Notes: a model not told the origin generated them from the letters alone. Shown: positions 5,202 to 16,386, counted from the stretch's first letter. The stretch: DNA of 64,000 nt from Planctomycetota bacterium (GCA_045863855.1 BTVV01000004.1:1-64000); one strand, 5' to 3'. Numbers and translations: made by a program.

Positions 5202-6509
5202 TTAGTCCCCTGCGGCGCCTATACGCAGCTCGCCGGAATCGGGTTGAGGTTCCTGCGTACGCGGCGGGACAGGCCCCGCTCCGGCAGGAGCCGGAGTTGC
5301 GGGGGCTTGGGAGAAGAAGATGCGATCGACCTCCAAGCTCCTGAACGCGGTTTCGATTTTCCCCGTCTCCAGATTGACCGACAGGACCTGATACTTTCTC
5401 TGGCCGTAGCCATGGTATCCATAGTGGGTATAGGGATCGTCCACGGTGGCGCCTAGAAGTCCCGATACCAGGTACGCTTGTGTGCCTGAGGGATCCACGC
5501 CGGCCAATCGAAAGTGGTGCCAGTAAATCGAATGATGGTCCACAGAGGCGACCTTCTTCCAGGCGCCCGTGAGCACCTCCGGCTTAATCCAAAGGGTAGA
5601 TTCCAGCCGGTCCTCGGACAGGCGTTTTCCGTAGCAAAGCGCAACCACCCCTCGCCCGGCAGGCATCGGACAAAGACTCGGCGTTGGGTCCGGAGGCAAG
5701 GCCAAGGGCTTGGAGATTTTACCCGTCGCGTCAAAACAGTACAGATGATGGCTACTCGCGATCGCAAGCGTTCCGTCCGAAAGCGTGGTCATGCCGCTCC
5801 CGAACTGAATGTCGTATTGCGGGGTGAGCGGGATGCGGCCCATGCGCCCGGTTTTTAAGTCCAGCACTTGCAGTTCCGTGGCGGTGCGCTGACCGGCCAG
5901 TTGCTGAATCGACCACCAACGTTCGTTGACCGCGTCGTGTCCCCAGGCCATATGGCCCCATCCGCCCCATCCCCAGTTCGCGTACTGATGCCAACCGGGC
6001 AGTTGCCCCACCAAACGCTCCGCCCCGGACTTCAAATCCCGTTCGTAAATCTCCCGCATCTGGAGAACTTGGGCTGGGGACTTCCCTTTAGGCAACCGCT
6101 GCCGGCTTTCCAGATATACCTTGCTCCCGTCCGCGTTCATGCTTGCGCCGAGCAGCCGCAAATTCACACGCCCCAAGGCCGGGTCGGCCACTTCGACGAA
6201 GGGCTTGGCGAGCGGACCTATCGTGCGGACCGTCTTCTTATGCAGGTCGATCAGGTACAGTTTCCAGGCACCCGTTCCGTACTCGTCGTCCAGATCTTCA
6301 TGCGCACGCAGGACGAGTCCTTCCGAAGCGTTCAGGAAATCGTACACGCCCAGCGGCAGCCAGCGCCCTGGCGGCGCGTTGCCGGAGGGGGCCTCTCCGC
6401 CCCTGGCAAGAGGCGTTAAGCACAACACCCACACCACGGCCCATCGCCTCAGTAGCACAAACGCCTCCCGGGACGCCACTCCTGCGTCGTAGTCTCCAGG
6501 ACGTACCAA
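5202..6509 (-). CDS. Hypothetical exported protein, possibly beta-propeller-like
   Basis: Signal-like N-terminus (WAVVWVLCLTPLARG) and repeated (L/V)DLK(T/S)G/NLETG strand-turn motifs; start uncertain. Confidence 0.65.
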   Translation of the reverse strand: MVRPGDYDAGVASREAFVLLRRWAVVWVLCLTPLARGGEAPSGNAPPGRWLPLGVYDFLNASEGLVLRAHEDLDDEYGTGAWKLYLIDLHKKTVRTIGPLAKPFVEVADPALGRVNLRLLGASMNADGSKVYLESRQRLPKGKSPAQVLQMREIYERDLKSGAERLVGQLPGWHQYANWGWGGWGHMAWGHDAVNERWWSIQQLAGQRTATELQVLDLKTGRMGRIPLTPQYDIQFGSGMTTLSDGTLAIASSHHLYCFDATGKISKPLALPPDPTPSLCPMPAGRGVVALCYGKRLSEDRLESTLWIKPEVLTGAWKKVASVDHHSIYWHHFRLAGVDPSGTQAYLVSGLLGATVDDPYTHYGYHGYGQRKYQVLSVNLETGKIETAFRSLEVDRIFFSQAPATPAPAGAGPVPPRTQEPQPDSGELRIGAAGD

Positions 6510-6546
6510 GCCGAATTGGTGTGACCACCTGCCCCTCGCTGCGCTC

Positions 6547-6575
6547 TTGACCGCTCCCCCATCCTTCCTTACTAT
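6547..6575 (+). promoter_or_regulatory. Sigma70-type promoter for the leader-cysE/trpC unit
   Basis: TTGACC (6547-6552) - 17 nt - TACTAT (6570-6575). Confidence 0.6.
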
Positions 6576-6611
6576 GGTGCCCGCCTTTGTTTAGGAGCGT
6601 CCCCAAGCACT

Positions 6612-6722
6612 ATGCACGCCGTGGTTCTATCTCGTCTTCCTCGCCGCGCCGCGATTCTCGCGGTTGCCGGCACACGGGCAGGCTCCTGGCGGTCGATGCC
6701 GGGCTGTTGTTGCGCGCATTGA
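6612..6722 (+). CDS. Putative attenuator leader peptide (36 aa, ...GSWRSMPGCCCAH*)
   Basis: ATG 6612 with AGGAG at 6593-6597; Trp codon at 6687; tandem Cys codons TGT TGT TGC at 6705-6713; stop at 6720-6722; alternative internal ATG at 6696. Lies directly upstream of cysE. Confidence 0.7.
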   Translation: MHAVVLSRLPRRAAILAVAGTRAGSWRSMPGCCCAH

Positions 6723-6794
6723 TGGTCCCCCCTTGCGGGCCGAACGGCGGCCCGCGCCTGACGCGCAAAACAGCTCCCTAGGAATATCGACGCC
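6688..6794 (+). promoter_or_regulatory. Long RBS-sequestering stem-loop (translational attenuator)
   Basis: GGCGGTCGAT (6688-6697) pairs with ATCGACGCC (6786-6794, just before the ATG). GGGCTGTTGTTGCGCG (6701-6716) pairs with CGCGCAAAACAGCTC (6762-6776). Perfect inner hairpin GCGGGCCG/CGGCCCGC (6735-6755). The SD-like AGGA (6780-6783) is enclosed. Confidence 0.7.
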
Positions 6795-8375
6795 ATGGAA
6801 CTCCTCGAACGCATCCTGCACGGCTTTCTGCTCTTCGTTGCCGCGATGGCCCTTCTCAAGCTGGGTTTCGCGATTCTCGTCGCCTTCATGGCCGTCCTTT
6901 TTAAGCCGTCCCTGATCGGCAGCGTGCTGGCGGACTTGCGATGCATCCGAGAACGCGACCCGGCGGTGGAAGGTTGGATCGCGGCGCTCTTCTATCCCGG
7001 TTGGTGGGCGCTGGCGCTGCATAAGCTGATCGCGCATCCGCTGTACCGCATCGGCTTGCGCACGCCCGCGCGGCTGGCCAACTTCGGCGCGCGTTTCCTG
7101 ACCGGCACGGATATTCATCCCGGCGCGCAATTGGGCCAAGCGATCTTCATCGACCATGCGCACGGCGTCGTGATCGGTGAAACGGCGATCGTGGGCGACG
7201 GCGTCACCGTCCTCCATCAGGTCACTTTGGGCGGCACCGGCAAGGAACACGGCAAGCGCCATCCCACGGTGGAGGACGGAGTTCTGCTCAGCGCCGGATC
7301 CAAGGTGCTGGGCAATATCGTCATCGGCGCCGATGCCAAAATCGGCGCCGGCAGCGTCGTCGTAAAAGCCGTACCCGCCGAATCCACGGTCGTCGGCATC
7401 CCGGGGCGCATCGTCGCCACCGGCGGCAAGCGCCTCCCCGCCAAATCGCTCGACCAGACCGACCTGCCCGATCCGATCGTCGAACGCCTCGTGGCGCTGC
7501 AAGACGAACTCCGCGAATGGGAGCGCAAAGTGGAAGAAAAGAAGTCCAGCGGCGCGCGCTGGCCGAAGGCCGGTGAAGACGTGCTCGCCGAGATCGTGAC
7601 GCATAAGCATGCCGAAGTGGCCGAAGCGCGCGCGCGCGCGCCGCTTCCCGAACTGCGCAGTCAGCCCGGAGTGCGCGGTTCGCCGCGCGGCTTCGCCGCC
7701 GCTCTGCGCGGGCCGGGACTGCGGCTCATCGCAGAAATCAAGAAAGCCAGCCCTTCGGGCGGACTGCTGCGCGAAGACTTCGATCCGCAGGTCATCGCGC
7801 GCATCTACCAGGACGCGCACGCCTCGGCCCTCTCGGTGCTCACCGACCGAAAGTACTTCCAGGGCTCGCTCGAGTACCTGGCCCAGGTCCGCGCCGCCGT
7901 GGGCCTGCCGCTCTTGCGCAAAGATTTCGTGATCGACGAATACCAGATCGTCGAAGCCGCGCGCGCCGGCGCCGACGCGGTCCTGCTCATCGCCGCCTGC
8001 CTCGACGACGCCCAACTCAAGGGCTTCCGCGAAGCCGCCTCCGCCGAAGGGCTCGACGCGCTCGTCGAAGTCCACGACGAGGCCGAACTGGTCCGCGCGC
8101 TCCAGAGCGGCGCCGAGATCCTGGGCATCAACAATCGCAACCTCAAGACCCTCGAAACGAAACTCGAGACGACTTACAGGCTCGTCCGCGAACTCCCCTC
8201 CGACCGCAACGGGCTGCTCGTCGTCAGCGAGTCGGGGATCAAGACCGCCGAGGACACGCACCGCCTCATCGAAGCGGGGGTCAACGCCGTACTCATCGGC
8301 GAAACCTTCATGCGCGCGCCAGACATCGGCTCGAAGGTTCGCGAGATCATGGGGCATGGGGAGTACGCGATCTGA
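6795..8375 (+). CDS. cysE-trpC: Serine O-acetyltransferase / indole-3-glycerol-phosphate synthase fusion (CysE-TrpC)
   Basis: CysE motifs RERDPA, DIHPGA, FIDHAHGVVIGET, GKRHPT and hexapeptide repeats. From about 7575, TrpC motifs EIKKASPS, SVLTD, LRKDF, LVEVH, GINNRNL, SESG. One uninterrupted frame. Confidence 0.92.
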   Translation: MELLERILHGFLLFVAAMALLKLGFAILVAFMAVLFKPSLIGSVLADLRCIRERDPAVEGWIAALFYPGWWALALHKLIAHPLYRIGLRTPARLANFGARFLTGTDIHPGAQLGQAIFIDHAHGVVIGETAIVGDGVTVLHQVTLGGTGKEHGKRHPTVEDGVLLSAGSKVLGNIVIGADAKIGAGSVVVKAVPAESTVVGIPGRIVATGGKRLPAKSLDQTDLPDPIVERLVALQDELREWERKVEEKKSSGARWPKAGEDVLAEIVTHKHAEVAEARARAPLPELRSQPGVRGSPRGFAAALRGPGLRLIAEIKKASPSGGLLREDFDPQVIARIYQDAHASALSVLTDRKYFQGSLEYLAQVRAAVGLPLLRKDFVIDEYQIVEAARAGADAVLLIAACLDDAQLKGFREAASAEGLDALVEVHDEAELVRALQSGAEILGINNRNLKTLETKLETTYRLVRELPSDRNGLLVVSESGIKTAEDTHRLIEAGVNAVLIGETFMRAPDIGSKVREIMGHGEYAI

Positions 8376-8461
8376 GACGCGGCAGGCAACAGTCAAACGA
8401 GCGTGGGCCAGACAGGGCGCTCCGACGAACGGGTGGAACTCCACCGCGCACAGGGTCCGGC

Positions 8462-8491
8462 TTGGCGTCCTGCGGTCTTGCCGGTTAACAT
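8462..8491 (+). promoter_or_regulatory. Possible promoter giving a leaderless larC transcript
   Basis: TTGGCG-18 nt-TAACAT ending 6 nt before the ATG at 8498; no SD visible. Confidence 0.3.
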
Positions 8492-8497
8492 CGTGGC

Positions 8498-9898
8498 ATG
8501 GCAAAGCGCATTCTGTACCTCGATCCGTTCAGCGGCATCAGCGGCGATATGTTCCTCGCCAGCCTGCTCGACTTGGGCCTCGATCTGGCCCACCTCAAGC
8601 GCGAACTCGCCAAGCTAGGCGTCGGCGGCTATGAGCTGAAATCCTCGAAGACCCTGCGCGGCGTCATGGCCGCCACTCAGTTCGAAGTAATCGTGAGCCA
8701 CGATCCCGCCGTACATTCGCACGCATCCCAGCCCGAGCCTGCGCACAGCCATGGCCATGACCACGGTCATGCGCACGATCATGGCCACAGCCATAGTCAT
8801 GCCCACAGCCACGAACCCGCGCATACTCACACGCATCACGAGAACCACGGTCACGGCCATGACGCGCATCATCACCACGACGTTCACGCGCATGTTCACC
8901 GGCCATTCAAAGAGATTCGCAAGCTGATCGATGCCGCGGCGCTCTCGCCACGCGTGAAGGCGCAAAGCCTCCGCGCGTTCGAACTGCTGGCGGAAGTCGA
9001 AGGCCGTATGCACGGGCAAACAGTGGACGAGGTTCAGTTCCACGAGGTGGGCGGGTTGGACAGCATCGTCGATTTCGTCGGCGTCTGCATCGGGCTGGAG
9101 GCGCTGGGTGTGGACGAAGTGTTCTGCGGTCCGCTGGCGTTGGGGGGCGACGGCGCGCTGGGCGGATACGTCCAGTGCGCGCACGGGAAGCTGCCCGTGC
9201 CGGCCTTCGCGACGCTGGAACTGGCCAAAGGTCTGCCGCTGCGCCACGCCGGCGTGGACAAGGAACTCACCACGCCCACCGGCGCGGCGCTGGTCCAAGC
9301 GCTAGTGAAACCAGAACACAGCGGCCCACTGCCGAATTTGCAGGTAGAGCGGATCGGCTACGGCGCAGGCGCGCGCAACGACCCGAAGATTCCGATTCCG
9401 AACGTACTTCGGGCGGTGCTGGGTACGCGGGCTTCGAGCGAGACGGCATCCGCCGCCACGCCGGCAACGATCGTCGAACTGCAAGCCAACCTCGACGACG
9501 TTTCCGGGGAAACGCTAGGCTACGCCGCCGAAAAGCTCTTCGAGGCCGGCGCATTGGATGTTTTCTTCGTGCCCGTGCAGATGAAGAAAGGCCGCCCCGG
9601 CACGCTGTTGACGATACTCGCCGCGCCGGACCGCCAAGCCGACCTGCTGAACGTGCTCTTTCGCGAGACGACCACCTTCGGCGTGCGCTACGAACTCAAA
9701 TCCCGCGCGATCCTGGAACGGGAAACGGTCACGGTGGATACCCCGTGGGGCGATGTGCGCGTCAAGCTTGGCCGGTGGCAAGGCGCCACGGTGAGCGCGC
9801 ACCCCGAGTTCGAAGACTGCCGCAAGCTCGCCGAACGGCACGGGGTGCCGCTGCGCGCCGTCCAGGATGCCGCCCGCGCCGCCGCCGCGGATCTGTAG
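8498..9898 (+). CDS. larC: Nickel pincer cofactor nickel insertase LarC
   Basis: YLDPFSGISGDMFL, FHEVGGLDSIVD, CAHG.LPVPA, ELTTPTGAA, ANLDD, MKKGRPG, ETTTFGVR, PEFEDC, plus a His-rich insert. Confidence 0.93.
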   Translation: MAKRILYLDPFSGISGDMFLASLLDLGLDLAHLKRELAKLGVGGYELKSSKTLRGVMAATQFEVIVSHDPAVHSHASQPEPAHSHGHDHGHAHDHGHSHSHAHSHEPAHTHTHHENHGHGHDAHHHHDVHAHVHRPFKEIRKLIDAAALSPRVKAQSLRAFELLAEVEGRMHGQTVDEVQFHEVGGLDSIVDFVGVCIGLEALGVDEVFCGPLALGGDGALGGYVQCAHGKLPVPAFATLELAKGLPLRHAGVDKELTTPTGAALVQALVKPEHSGPLPNLQVERIGYGAGARNDPKIPIPNVLRAVLGTRASSETASAATPATIVELQANLDDVSGETLGYAAEKLFEAGALDVFFVPVQMKKGRPGTLLTILAAPDRQADLLNVLFRETTTFGVRYELKSRAILERETVTVDTPWGDVRVKLGRWQGATVSAHPEFEDCRKLAERHGVPLRAVQDAARAAAADL

Positions 9899-9909
9899 CT
9901 GCCCGCGCC

Positions 9910-10470
9910 CTATTTCTTATCCAGTTCGGTCTCGATGGCTTTAACCACATCTTCCGCATCCGGCTTGGTTCGCGGTGCGAAGCGTTCGGCCAGCGAGCCG
10001 TCGCGAGCCACCAGGAACTTCTCGAAGTTCCAGGTGATCTTCCCCGGCTTGGGTCCGTCCACAGTCAGGTACTGGTACAGCGGGTCGATTTCGACGCCTT
10101 GCACGTGGACCTTGGACATCAGAGGGAACGTGACATTGAACTTGGTCGAGCAGAACTTTTTGATCTCTTCGTTCGTCCCAGGCTCCTGCGCGCCAAAGTC
10201 GTTGCAGGGAATCCCGACCACCACCAGCCCGCGGTCCTTGTACTTATCGTAAAGGGCCTGGAGCTGCGTGTATTGCGGCGTCAAGCCGCAGCGCGAGGCG
10301 ACATTGACGAGAAGCACCACCTTACCCTTGTACTGGCTCAGCGGGTGATCGCTGCCGTCGTTGGCCTTAAGAGTGAAGCTGAGAGGCGATGCCGCCACGG
10401 TCTTTTCCTCCGCGTAAAGCCCACACGCCAGGGCCGCCACGGCCACCAGCATCACAAGGCGTCGAGACAT
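9910..10470 (-). CDS. Cys-type glutathione peroxidase-family protein with signal peptide
   Basis: VNVASRCGLTPQY, PCNDFGAQEPG, WNFEKFLV; the peroxidatic residue is Cys, not Sec. Confidence 0.93.
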   Translation of the reverse strand: MSRRLVMLVAVAALACGLYAEEKTVAASPLSFTLKANDGSDHPLSQYKGKVVLLVNVASRCGLTPQYTQLQALYDKYKDRGLVVVGIPCNDFGAQEPGTNEEIKKFCSTKFNVTFPLMSKVHVQGVEIDPLYQYLTVDGPKPGKITWNFEKFLVARDGSLAERFAPRTKPDAEDVVKAIETELDKK

Positions 10471-10556
10471 GCGTGAAGCTCCTGAAATCGACCCGTTCTT
10501 GAAAGGTGTCCACCAGCTTGGCGGACGCTTCGTCGCGCCTTCAATTCAATCCGGCG

Positions 10557-10829
10557 CTACTGCTGCTTGGCTTTAACCACTTCGGCGATATTCGCCACAG
10601 TGCGGAATTTCTTGAGGCTGAACTCTTCGTCTTCCAGTGCGATCCCGAAAACTTCTTCCAGCCCGATCACGATTTCCATCAACTGCACCGACTCGAGCCC
10701 CCACTTCTCCATCAGGTCGTCCGTGTCGCCGATATCCGCAGGCTGCGCCTTAAGCATCAAGCGGTCTACGATCATGATTTTGAGCTGAACTTCCAGGCTG
10801 TCGTCGGCCACGAGATGCTCCTTAAGCAT
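10557..10829 (-). CDS. Acyl/peptidyl carrier protein
   Basis: Acidic 90-aa protein with GLESVQLMEIVIGLEEVFGI (phosphopantetheine Ser motif) and FRTVANI. Confidence 0.85.
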   Translation of the reverse strand: MLKEHLVADDSLEVQLKIMIVDRLMLKAQPADIGDTDDLMEKWGLESVQLMEIVIGLEEVFGIALEDEEFSLKKFRTVANIAEVVKAKQQ

Positions 10830-11099: not shown

Positions 11100-12308
11100 A
11101 TGGTCCAAATCAATTTCGCGACGCGTGAGGTCAACTGCAAGATTGTGTTCTACGGTCCCGGCCGATGCGGGAAGACCACGAACTTGCAAGTCGTCCACGC
11201 CAAAGCGCCGCCGAACAGCACCGGCGACTTGGTCTCCATCGCCACGGAGACCGACCGCACGCTGTACTTCGACTTTTTGCCGCTCGATTTGGGCCAAGTC
11301 GCGGGCATGCGGACCAAGTTCTCGCTCTATACGGTCCCCGGCCAGGTGTACTACGACGCCACGCGCAAGCTGGTGTTGCAGGGCGCCGACGGGATCGTAT
11401 TCGTGGCCGACTCCAATCCAGACATGATGGAAGAGAATATCGAATCGCTGAACAACCTGGCCGTGAACCTGCGCGAGAACGGGCTGGACATCAACGAGTT
11501 GCCGGTGGTGCTGCAGTTCAACAAGCGCGACCTTGAGAATCCCGTACCTATCGAGGAAATGAACGCGAAGCTAAACCGCGCCAACTGGCCCGCCGTACCG
11601 GCCGTGGCAGTGAACGGCGACGGGGTGTTCCAGACGCTTAAGGCGATCTCCCAGTTCGTGATCAAGAAGTTGAATCGCGAACAGGGTTATTCGGAAGACG
11701 GCAGTCGCCGCGGCGGCGGTGCAGCCCGGCCTTCGGCGAAGTCGGCCGCCGCACCGCCTCCGCCTCCGCCCCCGCCGCCGGGTGCAAAGGCTCCCCCGCC
11801 GCCCCCCAAGCCCGCTGCTGCACCGCCGCCGCCCAGCCCTAAGGCGCCGACTCCACAGCCGCAGCCGGCCGCAAAGCCCGCGACGCCCGCATCCGCCGCG
11901 TCGCTGCCCAAGCCTAAATTTCCGACTCCGGCCCCTCAGCCGGTGGTGCTGCCTAAAAAGGATCCGCCATCCGGTGCGGTGCTTCCCAAGCCTCAGGCTC
12001 CAGCCGCCGCTTCGGTGCCGGCGCCGGAAGTCGCCAACGAGCCCGAAGCGGCGGTCGAGGCACCGCCCACACCGGCACCGGCTTCCGCCCCGGCTCTTAA
12101 CCCGGTGGCCGCCGAGATCGCCAAACGCAAGCGGGCCGAAGAAGAAGCGCGCCGAAACGCACCTGCCGAAGAGCCCGTAGAGGCCGCCCCACCGGCGGCG
12201 CCGGCCGGCGGAGGGGGTTCGAAAACCGTCGTCATCGTCTTGGCCGTGCTGGCTTTGGCGGGAGTGGCCGCCGCTTTGTTCTTTGTCTTTAAAGGGAGTG
12301 GGTCCTGA
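11100..12308 (+). CDS. mglA: MglA-family small GTPase with Pro-rich extension and C-terminal TM helix
   Basis: REVNCKIVFYGPGRCGKTTNL, TETDRTLYFDFLP, YTVPGQ, NKRD closely follow Myxococcus MglA. Residues ~200-402 are a Pro/Ala linker plus TVVIVLAVLALAGVAAALFFVF. Confidence 0.92.
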   Translation: MVQINFATREVNCKIVFYGPGRCGKTTNLQVVHAKAPPNSTGDLVSIATETDRTLYFDFLPLDLGQVAGMRTKFSLYTVPGQVYYDATRKLVLQGADGIVFVADSNPDMMEENIESLNNLAVNLRENGLDINELPVVLQFNKRDLENPVPIEEMNAKLNRANWPAVPAVAVNGDGVFQTLKAISQFVIKKLNREQGYSEDGSRRGGGAARPSAKSAAAPPPPPPPPPGAKAPPPPPKPAAAPPPPSPKAPTPQPQPAAKPATPASAASLPKPKFPTPAPQPVVLPKKDPPSGAVLPKPQAPAAASVPAPEVANEPEAAVEAPPTPAPASAPALNPVAAEIAKRKRAEEEARRNAPAEEPVEAAPPAAPAGGGGSKTVVIVLAVLALAGVAAALFFVFKGSGS

Positions 12309-12312
12309 CCCA

Positions 12313-12341
12313 TGGACCGCGGCGCAAGCAAGCGCTATACT
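12313..12341 (+). promoter_or_regulatory. Internal sigma70-type promoter for mglB
   Basis: TGGACC-17 nt-TATACT. Confidence 0.5.
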
Positions 12342-12405
12342 GCGCCTGCCCGCAGCGAAATGAGTACGCGGAGTCCCGACACACGTGGGGCTTGGGAGGT
12401 TTCCG

Positions 12406-12924
12406 ATGGCGTTTAGCGAAAAAATGCGGCAGGCCCGGCTGGTCTTCTACGAAGAAGATGTAGAGGATATCAATAAGCTCCTGGGCGATTTTCTAGAGCG
12501 TTCCCAAGCCAAGTGCGCGCTCTTGATCGACAAGGAAGGCCACCTCGTCACTAAAAAGGGCTTCACGAAGTCCTTCAATACCGATTCCATTGCCGCCCTC
12601 GTGGCCGGCTCCTTCGCGTCCACGCGCGAAGTCGCTAAGTTGCTGGGCGAGACGGAGTTCTCGGTGCTCTTCCACCAAGGCAAGAACGAAAACATCCACA
12701 TTGGTTTGGTGGCCGAACGCGCGCTGGTCGTGATCATCTTCGACGACCGCACCACGTTGGGCATGGTTCGGTTGTACGCCGAAGAGCTGACGACCAAGCT
12801 TTCCGATACTTTGCTGAAGGCCATCGATAAACATAAAGACAAGAACGACGGGGTCGGCGCCGAGTACGAAAAAGCCGCAGAAAAAGCGCTCGACGACTTC
12901 TTCGGTTCTGACGAAAAGGCCTGA
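12406..12924 (+). CDS. mglB: MglB roadblock/LC7 GTPase-activating protein
   Basis: LVFYEED, LIDKEG, AALVAG, FHQG, IFDDRTTLGMVRL and C-terminal ALDDFF helix as in Myxococcus MglB; GGAGG SD before ATG 12406. Confidence 0.92.
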   Translation: MAFSEKMRQARLVFYEEDVEDINKLLGDFLERSQAKCALLIDKEGHLVTKKGFTKSFNTDSIAALVAGSFASTREVAKLLGETEFSVLFHQGKNENIHIGLVAERALVVIIFDDRTTLGMVRLYAEELTTKLSDTLLKAIDKHKDKNDGVGAEYEKAAEKALDDFFGSDEKA

Positions 12925-13095
12925 TTCGAAGGCTTCAACGGACGATCGTGGCGGGGGCCGGAAGCTCCAGCAGGGAGCCGTGCCCCCAATCTACCTCCCC
13001 TTGCGCATATGCCGACGATATCTTAGTTTGCAGGACCAACGCGGCTAGGGGGTTAGGCGTTACGTTGCCGCGGGTTGCCAGGCGGCGGGTTCAAC

Positions 13096-16000
13096 ATGGG
13101 CTTCCAAGGAAGCGTCGAAAGCTTCAGTCTGGCCGACGTCTTCCAGAACCTTGCCATGAATCAGCAGACTGGCACGCTGCGCATCGTGGCGCCGGACGGT
13201 AAAGAACGGCATATCTTCTTCGACGCCGGCCAAGTCAAAAATCTTTCCCGCGGCACGCAGATTCCCTTGGTTTTGGGCGAGATGCTGGTCGGACGCAGCA
13301 TTTCCAGCCCTGAGCAGGTGGAAGAGGCGCTGGCGGCTCAGAAAGAGCGGCGCAAGCCCCTTGGCGAGTGCATGCTCGAGTTGGGCTTCCTCGACCGCGA
13401 CCGTCTGGAAGCCGTCCTTAAACACCAGATCGGCGAAGAGTTGTACGAGCTCTTCGGGTGGGAAAAGGCGAACTTCGAGTTCACCGAAGGACCGGCCAAT
13501 CCGCAACTTTTCGTGGACCGGGGCCTCGGTAGCCCTTCCTTGCCGATATCCAGTCTGATCATGGAAGCCGCGCGGCGGGTGGACGAAGTCGAACGCCTGC
13601 GCGAGCAGATCCCGTCTTTCAAAGAGATCTACGTCGTCGATAAGGATGTTCGCGAAGCGTTGGAAAGCGGGGCGCTGGAAACGGACGCCATCGAACGCCG
13701 CGTCATCACGCTGGTGGACGGCAAGCGCGACGTGGACGACCTGATCGCCGACTCCTTCCTCTTTCGCTTCGAGGTGCTTTCGACGCTGGCCGGATTCCTG
13801 CAGTCCTCGCTGGTCCGGCCAGCGAAGCTGGAGGAGTTGCAAGCGGCCACGCCCGAACTGCGCGAGGCCGGCGACAAGGGCCGCCTGTGCAAGAACCTCG
13901 AGCGCCGTCTCGCGTTGGGCGACGACACCGGCGACGTGCGCCGCGAATTGGCCGACGTGCTGGCGGCTTCCGAACAGGCCGAAAAAGCCGCCATCCATTA
14001 CAGCGTCCTGGCCGACGGGGAACAGAAGGCCGGCAACGAAGACGGGGCCGTCGATCTGTACCGCAAAATCCTGCAGGTGCTGCCGCACCACCTTCCTTCG
14101 CGCGAACGCCTGGGCACGATCTACGCGCGCCGTGGACAGCTGCGCGAGGCTATGGTGCAGTTCCAGGAAGTGATTCAGGCGCACCAACGCGCTCAAAATT
14201 TCGCCTCGGCCCGCCGCGTGGCTCAGCAAGCTCTCGAAATCGAGCCGACCGCGCATGACATCCGACGCGAACTCGTCCAGATCCTGGTCGACGAAGGAGA
14301 TAAGGCGGCCGCGGCGCGCGAATGCGAGGTGCTGGGCGATATGCTGGCCCGGCAGGGCCAGTCGCGGGAAGCCGCCGAATGCTACCGCCGCGCGATTCAG
14401 GTCATGCCCGGCTTGGCGCACCTGAAGAAGAAACTAGCCAATGTCATGCTCACGCAGGAAGACCGGCGCGCGCGGACGAAGCGCACGCTGATCGTCACCG
14501 TCTCGGTACTGGCCGTCCTGGCGATCGGCGGCGCGCTGGGCCTGCGCGAGTTCAATTTATACACCACGTGGCAGCGCACGCGGGAACAGGTCAAGCTGCT
14601 CCAGGGCACGGCGGCCGAGTTCGAGGCCCAAGAGCGGTTTAAAGACGCCGCCGACAAATACGAAGATGCCATTCGCCGCATCGCATCCAGCGAGATGAAG
14701 GACACGTTCGCCCCCATCACACGGGTCAACGACGAGGCACGCGCGCTGCATAATAAGCTCGAGAACGCGCGCAACGCGGCGGTGCAAAAGCACGACGTCA
14801 TGGCGGCCAGCGAGCAGAAGAACAGCAAGGAAGTGCTCGATCAGGGCCGCGCGCTCTGGAAAGCCGACGATCTATTCGCCGCGATCGCGAAGTTCGACGA
14901 GGTGCTGAGCAACCAGTTCGCTCCCGAGGAAGTGCGCACGGAAGCGGCCGAGTTGAAGGAAAAGACCGAGGCCAAAGCGACCGATTACAAAGCCGGTATC
15001 GCGCGCATGAAGAAACCGCCGCGCGAGTCCTTCAATGGAGTCCAGGAAGAGTACCGCTTCAAGCTGGCCTTCTTCGAGCGCTTCGGCAAGGTGCCCGAGC
15101 TGTCCAAGGAGAAGCTTGAGTTGCCGGTTCTGGTGACCCTCAAGAACGTGGACCGTGTGCTGGTGTACAAGGACGGCACATTCCTGGGGCCGGCGAGCAA
15201 AGGCGCCGAGAATGTCTTTCGCTACGACCGCGCCGAAGCGAAGCGGTTCGAGTTCCGCAAAGAAGGGTACAAGACCGAGTTTCGGCTGGTTCGCGAAATG
15301 GACGTCGAAGCGACGGTCAGCTTGCAGCGCGAGCCGGCCTTCGTGGCGCGTCTGCCGGTGAAGCCTTCGGGCGGCGCCGTCTACGATGGCAAAGACATCT
15401 GGGTCGGCACCGTGGAAGGCGGACTCCTGCAACTCACCCCCGGCCCTAAGGGACTGACCGCCGCATGGGAATTCAAGCTTCCGGGCGGAGGCGGGCTGGA
15501 TAAGGAAGTTTTCGGCAACGTCGTCGTGCAAACCGTAGGCGGCAAGAAGTTGCTGCTCTATTCCACCAAGGCCGGCGACCGCGTCGCGGTGGAACCGGGT
15601 AACGAGAAGCCGGCGCTTTTCGGAAAATCGAAAGACCGCTCGGTGCTGGAGACGCCCGCGCGCATCCAGCATCTACCTTTGGCCGGCGATCAGCTTTTCT
15701 TCCTCATCCCGCGCGACCGGCGCCTGGAAGGCTACCGCGCGGAGCAGGATATTCCGCTCTGGTCACGCGGTAGCGAAGAGTTGCCGAAGGCCATCACCTG
15801 CGGGCCGCTGCTGATTCGCCAGGAAGAACTGCTCGTCGTCGGCTGTGCCGACGGCAATCTGTACGGGTTGTCGCTGCGCGACGGCACGCGCCAGCGCGTA
15901 TGGACCACGCGCGGTCAGGCCATCGCGGGCGGCCCCCTGCTGATTCGAAACCTGCTCGTCGCCTGCGGCCGCGAGGGCAGCGTCTTCTTCTTCGACCTCA

Positions 16001-16386
16001 AGGGCGGCGGGGAGCTGAACACCGAGTCCATCCCCGGCAGCGTATACGCAGATCCGATCGTGCAGCGCCAGATGCTCTTCGTGGGCGCCTCGCTTCCCGA
16101 CGGGTTGTTCGCGATCGATCTGGATACGCAGCGCCTGCGCTTCGCGTACACCGGCGAACAGATCGACGGAGGCATCACGACCACGCCGGCGGTGGTGGGC
16201 GATTTCGTTTACTACGGCACCGAACGCGGCCATTTTTACGCTTTGAAGTACGACGGCCAAGGTTACGAACAGAAATGGGATTACCGTGCTCCCGATGGAG
16301 CGCGCATGGTGTGCAGTCCTGTGGCGATCGGAACGCGTGCCTTTTTCTTTTGCGCCGATGGCCGGGTCTACGTCTTCGACGACTAG
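13096..16386 (+). CDS. DUF4388 (PatA-N) + MshEN-like + TPR + TM + PQQ/BamB-type beta-propeller protein
   Basis: [19 protein letters not shown]...TGTL and [11 protein letters not shown] (DUF4388), TPR helices, [21 protein letters not shown], and PQQ-like repeats ([24 protein letters not shown]). Confidence 0.85.

Follow-up and report, generated by a model that had tools for sequence, protein, structure and literature searches.

Why should a serine O-acetyltransferase (CysE) and an indole-3-glycerol phosphate synthase (TrpC, also abbreviated IGPS) be encoded in one open frame? The question is raised by positions 6795..8375 (+ strand) of the 64,000-nucleotide stretch GCA_045863855.1 BTVV01000004.1:1-64000 of a Planctomycetota bacterium, the whole of which is called the window below. 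Comparisons of the sequence confirmed that the fused cysE-trpC gene found there is a genuine and conserved architecture, which is predicted to be bifunctional and which holds the sole copies of both activities.

One frame with two conserved domains

The single open frame comprises 526 codons (526 amino acids) without a stop and both of its parts match family profiles, which upholds the central claim of a preliminary description of the locus. The short-type CysE domain (residues 39-226, 6909..7472, +) was assigned by profile and structure matches. Its residues 46-205 matched TIGR01172 (serine O-acetyltransferase) with E 2.7e-60 and 203 bits, just below the cut-off of 210.65, and the domain scored 184 bits with the short-type profile NF041874, above the cut-off of 150. 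All the solved-structure matches of this domain at E<=1e-20 were serine acetyltransferases (21/21). The TrpC barrel (residues 263-519, 7581..8351, +) was assigned likewise; residues 262-519 gave 316 bits with NF001377 (IGP synthase TrpC; cut-off 260), and the score of the TrpC part with PF00218 was 291 bits (E 7.8e-87, cut-off 27).

Among the full-length fused proteins, CysE residues D120, H121, R155 and H156 as well as D/E106 were invariant (103/103) and D55 was kept in 102 of the 103; the corresponding E. coli numbering was assigned by motif from PMC13040420 and PMC9547175. The TrpC residues E314, K316, K376, E425 and N446 were also invariant in 103/103. The essential residues of IGPS are Glu51, Lys53, Lys110, Glu159 and Asn180 in S. 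solfataricus numbering (PMC7681013), and K316, K376, E425 and N446 aligned to K63, K123, E172 and N194 of the P. aeruginosa enzyme, residues taken from the same source. The ratios of non-synonymous to synonymous substitution rates, determined with five genome pairs, were 0.04-0.10 for CysE and 0.03-0.25 for TrpC. Both domains are under purifying selection, and judged by their residues both look active.

The AlphaFold monomer model had a mean predicted local distance difference test score (pLDDT) of 86 and a predicted template modelling score of 0.52, the orientation of the domains not being fixed. The modelled CysE domain, a left-handed beta-helix fold, superposed on 7RA4 and 8I09 at 1.5-1.9 A, and the modelled TrpC on 6Y88 at 1.5 A. 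The segment between the domains (7473..7580, +) consists of an LPDP helix (residues 227-251) and a short variable joint (252-262), where disorder was predicted (pLDDT <50 at 247-259). The preliminary description had regarded the sequence ERLVALQDELREWERKVEEKK as a coiled-coil-like linker. The sequence is present and was modelled as a helix at 227-251, but it corresponds to the native C-terminal helix of short-type CysE: the LPDP helix is the end of most of the 118 nearest stand-alone short CysE proteins, and a C-terminal helix has been described for truncated CysE (PMC13040420). The idea of a designed coiled-coil linker was thus rejected. The length of the joint, counted from LPD to the first TrpC motif, varied between 78 and 129 residues in the fused proteins.

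The protein begins with a hydrophobic helix (about residues 10-36, 6822..6902, +), detected by hydropathy, with a 19-residue maximum of 2.57, and by the model, in which residues 2-36 form a single helix. Such an N-terminal segment was found in 63 of the 103 fused proteins, including all the 54 that carry the C-terminal tail described below, and in 2/128 stand-alone short CysE proteins. The simplest reading is that the helix is probably a membrane anchor; alternatively, it may be a hydrophobic oligomer helix, part of a soluble bundle that takes the place of the missing hexamer helices. Two database proteins that are stand-alone short CysE, P0144 and P0186, have an N-terminal hydrophobic helix as well. 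No membrane-type CysE is mentioned in the consulted text of the CysE survey PMC13040420.

A misassembly at the junction had to be considered. Over 6509-8359 a contig of an independent study shows 0 differences from the window, and in two further studies the junction is bridged by RNA-library contigs, which come from a related strain. The RNA runs were available as contigs with small shares of sequence words, from which no expression level or strand can be taken. A chimera was ruled out by the letter-identical contig, the bridging RNA contigs and the many fused relatives. At least half of the words of the fused-gene stretch were found in each of 7 metagenome runs, which came from bioreactors, aquaculture, sediment and soil, a possible source run being left out.

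With tblastn and family searches, one copy of cysE and one copy of trpC were found in the genome (completeness 93.9%), both within the fused frame, and no separate copy of either. No MetA-type substitute for CysE was found in the genome with PF04204. The genes trpE, trpD, trpF, trpA and trpB were identified and, together with cysK, are spread over six other contigs. As had been stated earlier, no trp or cys gene is adjacent to the fusion: a divergent gene lies upstream and larC downstream.

Distribution and origin of the fusion

The class was sampled with 62 genomes (G019 left out), in which the fused families are f1, to which the present genome belongs, f2, f4 and f5. The intact fusion was detected in 22/24 genomes of these four families; in one of the others the gene was cut by a contig end and in one it was broken. 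The sole broken fusion, L024 (G015:C683), has a deletion and a frameshift between the domains, and cysK is also in two pieces in that genome; the break is probably an assembly error. No intact split into two separate genes was seen among the 24 genomes. The fusion was absent from all the 37 genomes of f6 and f7, and those examined have a different, long-type CysE. Among 378 sampled genomes of other classes of the phylum, with three candidates scored per genome, no two-domain match was obtained.

Both domains were present in 105 of the 120 best database hits. The organism-named fused database proteins were all from Planctomycetota and annotated either as TrpC alone or as serine acetyltransferase alone. 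Within the best 150 hits of a profile search against 1.84 billion representatives, three fused clusters were full-length; a scan of named genomes with generic patterns gave at least one fused locus, which could not be assigned to a lineage, among the 80 listed, and a metagenome scan gave at least six full-length fused loci and one cut by a contig end among the 80 listed. The tree of the fused proteins agreed with the rank structure, the position of f3 resting on G019 and two database proteins. Because of this distribution in the class, the phylum and the database searches, the fusion appears to be lineage-restricted and old, having been passed down within several families of a single uncultured class of Planctomycetota.

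When the fused sequences were constrained to one clade, the p value of the approximately unbiased test was 0.60 for CysE and 0.15 for TrpC, the constrained TrpC tree being 61 log units worse; the single-domain trees, in which G019 was included as a row, are unresolved. One origin of the fusion is thus allowed by the domain trees but not demonstrated by them. In one f4 genome cysS lies directly against the fused gene, and one database protein has it joined to the fusion, which may point to a cysS-cysE setting with trpC arriving downstream. Apart from cysS in that f4 genome, no conserved trp or cys neighbours of the fused loci were found. The fusion would most likely have begun as a joining of neighbouring genes.

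The tail, the leader and the neighbouring genes

Behind the TrpC barrel the protein ends in the tetrapeptide EYAI (8361..8372, +), recognised by conservation and by the criteria for peptides that dock into the cysteine synthase CysK. Normally CysE docks into CysK with a C-terminal peptide that ends in Ile (DFSI is the native one of M. tuberculosis), and the docking peptides are characterised by a terminal Ile, a hydrophobic residue at P3 and an acidic residue at P4 (PMC9547175). EYAI has all three. In S. aureus, CysE ends in DDYII and the regulator CymR in YMFYI (bioRxiv 2024.09.19.614015). The CysK of the present genome is of type A (TIGR01139, 449 bits, cut-off 351) with the peptide-binding motifs TSGNT, QQF and QGIGAGF.

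An aromatic-x-Ile end was found in 54/60 fused proteins of f1, eight of the 60 ending in DFSI, and in 0/45 other fused proteins, one of which ends in Ile. The stand-alone proteins practically lack it: 0/118 of the nearest CysE and 1/118 of TrpC, the latter being a fragment of an f1 fusion. Of the 54 tailed proteins, all had the terminal Ile (54/54), 50 had D/E at P4 and 53 had Y/F at P3, giving the f1 consensus D/E-Y/F-S/A/V-I. In the five genome pairs the tail codons showed synonymous changes only. The tail is of the CysK-docking type and may bind CysK.

On the fused-protein tree with a midpoint root, the distribution of the tail required 6 changes, for which one gain in f1 and five losses is the simplest reading. 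It is also possible that an ancestral tail was already there and TrpC went in ahead of it, rather than that the tail was re-made in f1. Insertion needs more changes than re-making, but losses come easily and the tree was rooted at its midpoint. In three tail-less genes examined, no remnant of a tail was seen beyond the stop codon (0/3). In one tail-less genome a CysK-loop lysine is changed; other tailed and untailed genomes vary too and no inference was drawn.

The same ending is shared by other proteins of sulfur metabolism. Among 4983 genes called in the genome by a rough open reading frame (ORF) filter, ten have the aromatic-x-Ile ending and five of these belong to the sulfur pathway: the fusion, CysH (DFSI; G000:C99:8688-9446, L192), the sulfate ABC ATPase CysA (DYAI; C209:751-1821, L193), a SulP permease (NYSI; C33:8365-10251, L196) and a CymR-like Rrf2 regulator beside cysK (MYYI; C3:128288-128746, L042), the best specific match of which was CymR, below the cut-off. 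The hypergeometric probability of this concentration was about 1e-8 to 1e-11, with 15-60 pathway genes assumed. Within the order, G019 rows being dropped, the ending was kept in 23/23 Rrf2, 10/15 CysH (14 end in Ile), 3/3 CysA and 4/5 SulP proteins; across the phylum it was present in 10/17 CysA. This suggests that CysH, CysA, SulP and the CymR-like Rrf2 may be several undescribed partners of CysK, and among the literature titles listed no description of a CysK-type ending on CysH, CysA or SulP was found.

Some further endings were recorded. More distant copies of CysH end in GAGI, GSGI or NGNI. The cysK gene (C3:127180-128148) and the Rrf2 gene with MYYI follow each other at G000:C3:127180-128746. 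Two types of Rrf2 occur in many relatives, one of them next to cysK, and every one ends in aromatic-x-Ile. The small subunit of acetolactate synthase (G000:C30:36328-36969, L195) ends in QYRI, which may be due to chance.

Upstream of the fused gene, a sigma-70-like promoter, TTGACC-17-TACTAT, was located at 6547..6575 (+; 1 found against 0.1 expected in shuffles). A TTGACC...TA..[AC]T box could also be made out by eye in the upstream sequence of relatives. Two studies have RNA-library contigs with their first bases at 6593 and 6595, which hints weakly at the start site. The promoter is followed by a poly-cysteine leader ORF of 36 codons (6612..6722, +) with SD-like (Shine-Dalgarno-like) AGGAG before it; it ends in W-R-S-M-P-G-C-C-C-A-H, the Cys codons lying at 6705-6713 and the Trp codon at 6687-6689. 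A Cys-run leader was found in 10 of the 16 f1 genomes with upstream DNA and in 3/6 metagenome loci, one of which has a leader identical to that of one of the genomes. A comparable Cys-run ORF precedes 17 of the 4983 called genes. In the sister families the fused proteins have neither the tail nor the leader.

The 3' half of the leader is predicted to pair with the ribosome-binding region and AUG of cysE-trpC in an attenuator hairpin (6680..6802, +) with an inner hairpin at 6735-6755. The computed stability was -60.9 kcal/mol (z -3.27; 1/200 shuffles as stable), and 14/17 bases around the start codon were paired in the predicted fold. The pairing partner of the Cys codons lies 12-38 bases ahead of the AUG in 9/11 leaders. 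The leader is a candidate for cysteine-dependent attenuation, with mixed support for the precise mode of switching. A Trp codon was present in 8/12 distinct leaders, from about three independent lineages of 7; a dual Cys/Trp sensing should be taken as a lead, not as a result. For such polycysteine leaders Rho-dependent variants have been put forward, and a mechanism based on polarity or Rho may apply here. No Rfam family was found in 6000-10600, and the search for an intrinsic terminator in the leader gave one weak hit (3 found against 1.6 expected). In the leaderless f1 members L011, L013, L014, L015 and L255, a promoter-like TTGACC...TATGCT box stands only a few bases before, or overlaps, the likely start codon, as would be seen if deletion of the leader had left the gene nearly leaderless.

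The gene downstream of the fusion is larC-like (8498..9898, +), a nickel-insertion gene (PF01969) with a long His-rich insert. It is the usual downstream neighbour in f1, being found 3' of the fusion in 10/15 loci examined. LarC serves a sulfur-containing cofactor. Elsewhere in the window, three consecutive genes at 11100-16386 form a polarity-type module, here in a planctomycete: one for an MglA-like small GTPase, whose Pro-rich tail is long and which has a hydrophobic segment at its C-terminus, one for an MglB-like roadblock protein and one for a DUF4388-TPR-beta-propeller protein. At 10557-10829 (-) a stand-alone acyl-carrier-like protein (PF00550) is encoded; within the first 20 kb no synthase was seen near it.

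Proposed governance of the fused enzyme and its relation to known systems

Because the gene has a cysteine leader and its product a CysK-type tail, the protein would be governed as a cysteine gene and TrpC would be carried along. This explanation, a bifunctional enzyme with TrpC as the passenger, is regarded as the best and as somewhat more probable than the others taken together. The CysE part would probably form a trimer with three TrpC barrels hung from the CysE C-terminal helices, and the protein is probably held at the membrane by its N-terminal helix. The fusion of TrpC behind CysE would remove the free CysE C-terminus that other bacteria insert into CysK; in f1 the D/E-Y/F-x-Ile tail at the end of TrpC may allow the cysteine synthase complex to form via the tryptophan enzyme. 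With a shortage of Cys-tRNA, the ribosome would stall in the leader, the hairpin hiding the gene start would open and translation would follow. With plentiful sulfide, CysK would bind the tail on TrpC and be inhibited, and O-acetylserine would release it, as in the known complex. The level of TrpC would then track the demand for cysteine, basal expression supplying tryptophan synthesis.

Several observations weigh against the passenger explanation. CysE of N. gonorrhoeae ends in DFMI and formed no complex in vitro (bioRxiv 2025.03.26.645513). Co-variation of tail and CysK was absent, CysK being above the cut-off in 5/5 tail-less fused genomes tested, and the tail was lost about five times inside f1 according to the fused-protein tree. 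The tail is also short: in 42/52 cases the protein runs on for only about 6 residues beyond the last helix of TrpC. The leader is absent from 6/16 f1 genomes. In only 5/11 leaders was the start region, by computation, clearly cheaper to open with a ribosome placed at the Cys codons; in the present genome a ribosome at the leader stop codon lowered the cost equally, and in the whole-leader model the effect of stalling was small, from 12.4 to 10.7 kcal/mol. The long-range pairing was not recovered as an alignment consensus, only the inner hairpin (7 leaders) and a small 5' hairpin were. The score of the CysE domain is slightly under the TIGR01172 cut-off, and an unfused cysE beside a stand-alone trpC was seen in 0/84 loci, leaving the pre-fusion gene order unobserved.

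The preliminary description had proposed a physical and regulatory coupling of the two pathways at the serine branch point. The serine part did not hold: TrpC uses no serine, trpA and trpB lie on other contigs, and there is no shared metabolite for channelling. Since TrpC uses no serine and the sister families are fused without tail or leader, this coupling became a minority reading. A regulatory coupling does survive in a one-way form, suggested by the Cys leader before the sole trpC and by the CysK-type tail on TrpC. In the corresponding rival explanation, the fusion was kept to coordinate tryptophan and cysteine synthesis, the level of TrpC, and perhaps its activity via CysK on the tail, following the sulfur status and the leader reading both Cys and Trp. 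This is considered rather unlikely. It would agree with the integrity of the gene in 22/24 genomes of the four families, where no intact split of cysE and trpC was seen, and with the position of the tail directly on the TrpC barrel. A Trp codon stands at most 8 codons before the Cys run in 7/12 distinct leaders, compared with 1.5% Trp in the proteins of the genome, a ribosome at the Trp codon opened the start region here in a downstream-only model (16.2 to 3.9 kcal/mol), and none of the genes trpE, D, F, A and B was seen to be preceded by a WW or WxW leader. However, the leader Trp codons come from about 3/7 independent lineages and are mostly single, the TGG pairs with CCA at the start codon here, which can explain its retention, and a Trp stall had little effect in the whole-leader model. 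Furthermore, TrpC is neither the committed step nor a user of serine (PMC2395257), and the sister families retain the fusion without tail or leader.

At the other extreme, the fusion could be a neutral accident of two independent domains, its tail not binding CysK in practice but being a relic or serving another partner. The 40 of the 103 fused proteins without tail and hydrophobic helix and the 9 with the helix only would fit this, as would the varying length of the joint, the repeated loss of the tail with CysK retained and the N. gonorrhoeae precedent (bioRxiv 2025.03.26.645513). The tail positions are, however, strongly conserved, with synonymous changes only in the five pairs, and the ending is concentrated on sulfur-pathway proteins, so that an accident is quite unlikely. 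Very improbable is an assembly artefact or a gene product that is mainly two polypeptides, made by an internal start at V263 or by cleavage in the joint. It had been claimed that no SD precedes the TrpC part; in fact, an SD-like GGTGA lies 5-9 bases before an in-frame GTG (V263, 7581), with a score of -10.4 kcal/mol in this genome, and the joint is predicted to be disordered. In the two closest genomes the SD-like score is down to -6.2 and -4.7. Of the 22 genes in which the codon is placeable, 13 have no start codon there, and scores of -6 or lower were reached by 17.5% of in-frame start-like codons. With neither the SD-like site nor the start codon conserved, a conserved internal TrpC start is unsupported, and such a start would add free TrpC, not free CysE. 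The artefact is contradicted by the independent contig without differences and by the 105 database clusters with both domains.

The known relatives place these parts as follows. The fused CysE shares with the short CysE of S. aureus and M. tuberculosis the lack of the first N-terminal helices, the hexapeptide beta-helix, the Asp/His catalytic residues and the long C-terminal helix, and the f1 tails DFSI, DYSI and DYAI resemble or equal DFSI of M. tuberculosis and DYII of S. aureus. It differs in that a whole TrpC barrel stands between the C-terminal helix and the Ile tail and in the extra N-terminal hydrophobic helix. The main text of PMC13040420, where the long isoform is described as prevalent in Planctomycetota, contains no mention of a fusion, TrpC or transmembrane segments. 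With known TrpC (PF00218; P. aeruginosa 6Y88) the barrel shares completeness, including helix 0, and the aligned essential residues; it would be trimeric in the fusion, while the P. aeruginosa IGPS is a monomer. In the known fusions TrpC-TrpF (NF006945) and TrpC-TrpB (NF010375) the arrangement is different; here, the partner is N-terminal and from another pathway, and the tail is of the CysK type. Cross-pathway trp fusions, TrpE-PLPDE_IV and TrpF-TruA, are known (PMC2395257), these not being CysE-TrpC.

The partners of CysK in its complex and moonlighting roles (CysE, CymR, CdiA-CT of E. coli 536 and EGL-9) have in common with the fusion the C-terminal Ile, the aromatic P3, the acid at P4 and a type A CysK in the genome; here, the tail is borne by a tryptophan enzyme and its role is predicted from sequence. 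CymR is reported only from Gram-positives (bioRxiv 2024.09.19.614015), unlike the CymR-like Rrf2 found here. The leader resembles the tested polycysteine short-ORF attenuators of mycobacteria, Ms5788A and Rv2334A, the latter before cysK1-cysE (bioRxiv 834739), in being a short ORF that ends in consecutive Cys codons, with RNA predicted to pair just before a cysteine gene. In contrast to these, it is SD-like leadered instead of leaderless in this genome, has 2-6 Cys codons, occurs in Planctomycetota and precedes a gene that holds the sole trpC.

No description of a CysE-TrpC fusion was found in full-text literature searches, most subscription papers being outside their reach; the preliminary description had likewise named no described case. 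The fusion is real, lineage-defining and apparently undescribed, with known parts in a new arrangement. As a wider and doubtful proposal, CysK could be the hub of a membrane-side sulfur-sensing network, in which D/E-Y/F-x-Ile tails on CysA, SulP, CysH, the CymR-like repressor and the anchored CysE-TrpC would dock, and the tail re-made on TrpC, together with a Cys(/Trp) leader on the sole trpC, would mean that tryptophan synthesis was wired by selection to the sulfur status.

A rare cross-pathway enzyme fusion marks a whole uncultured lineage and was hidden by single-domain annotation. It shows the fate of a regulatory C-terminal peptide buried by fusion, the motif being found at the new C-terminus. 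It also offers a natural test of the share of the cysteine synthase complex that is owed to the tail alone in comparison with surface contacts between CysE and CysK, a question that is open because there is no atomic structure of the complex (PMC9547175). The tails of CysH, CysA and SulP predict several partners of CysK, which are easily testable with short peptides. For the cell itself, the arrangement would place its only TrpC under the control of cysteine.

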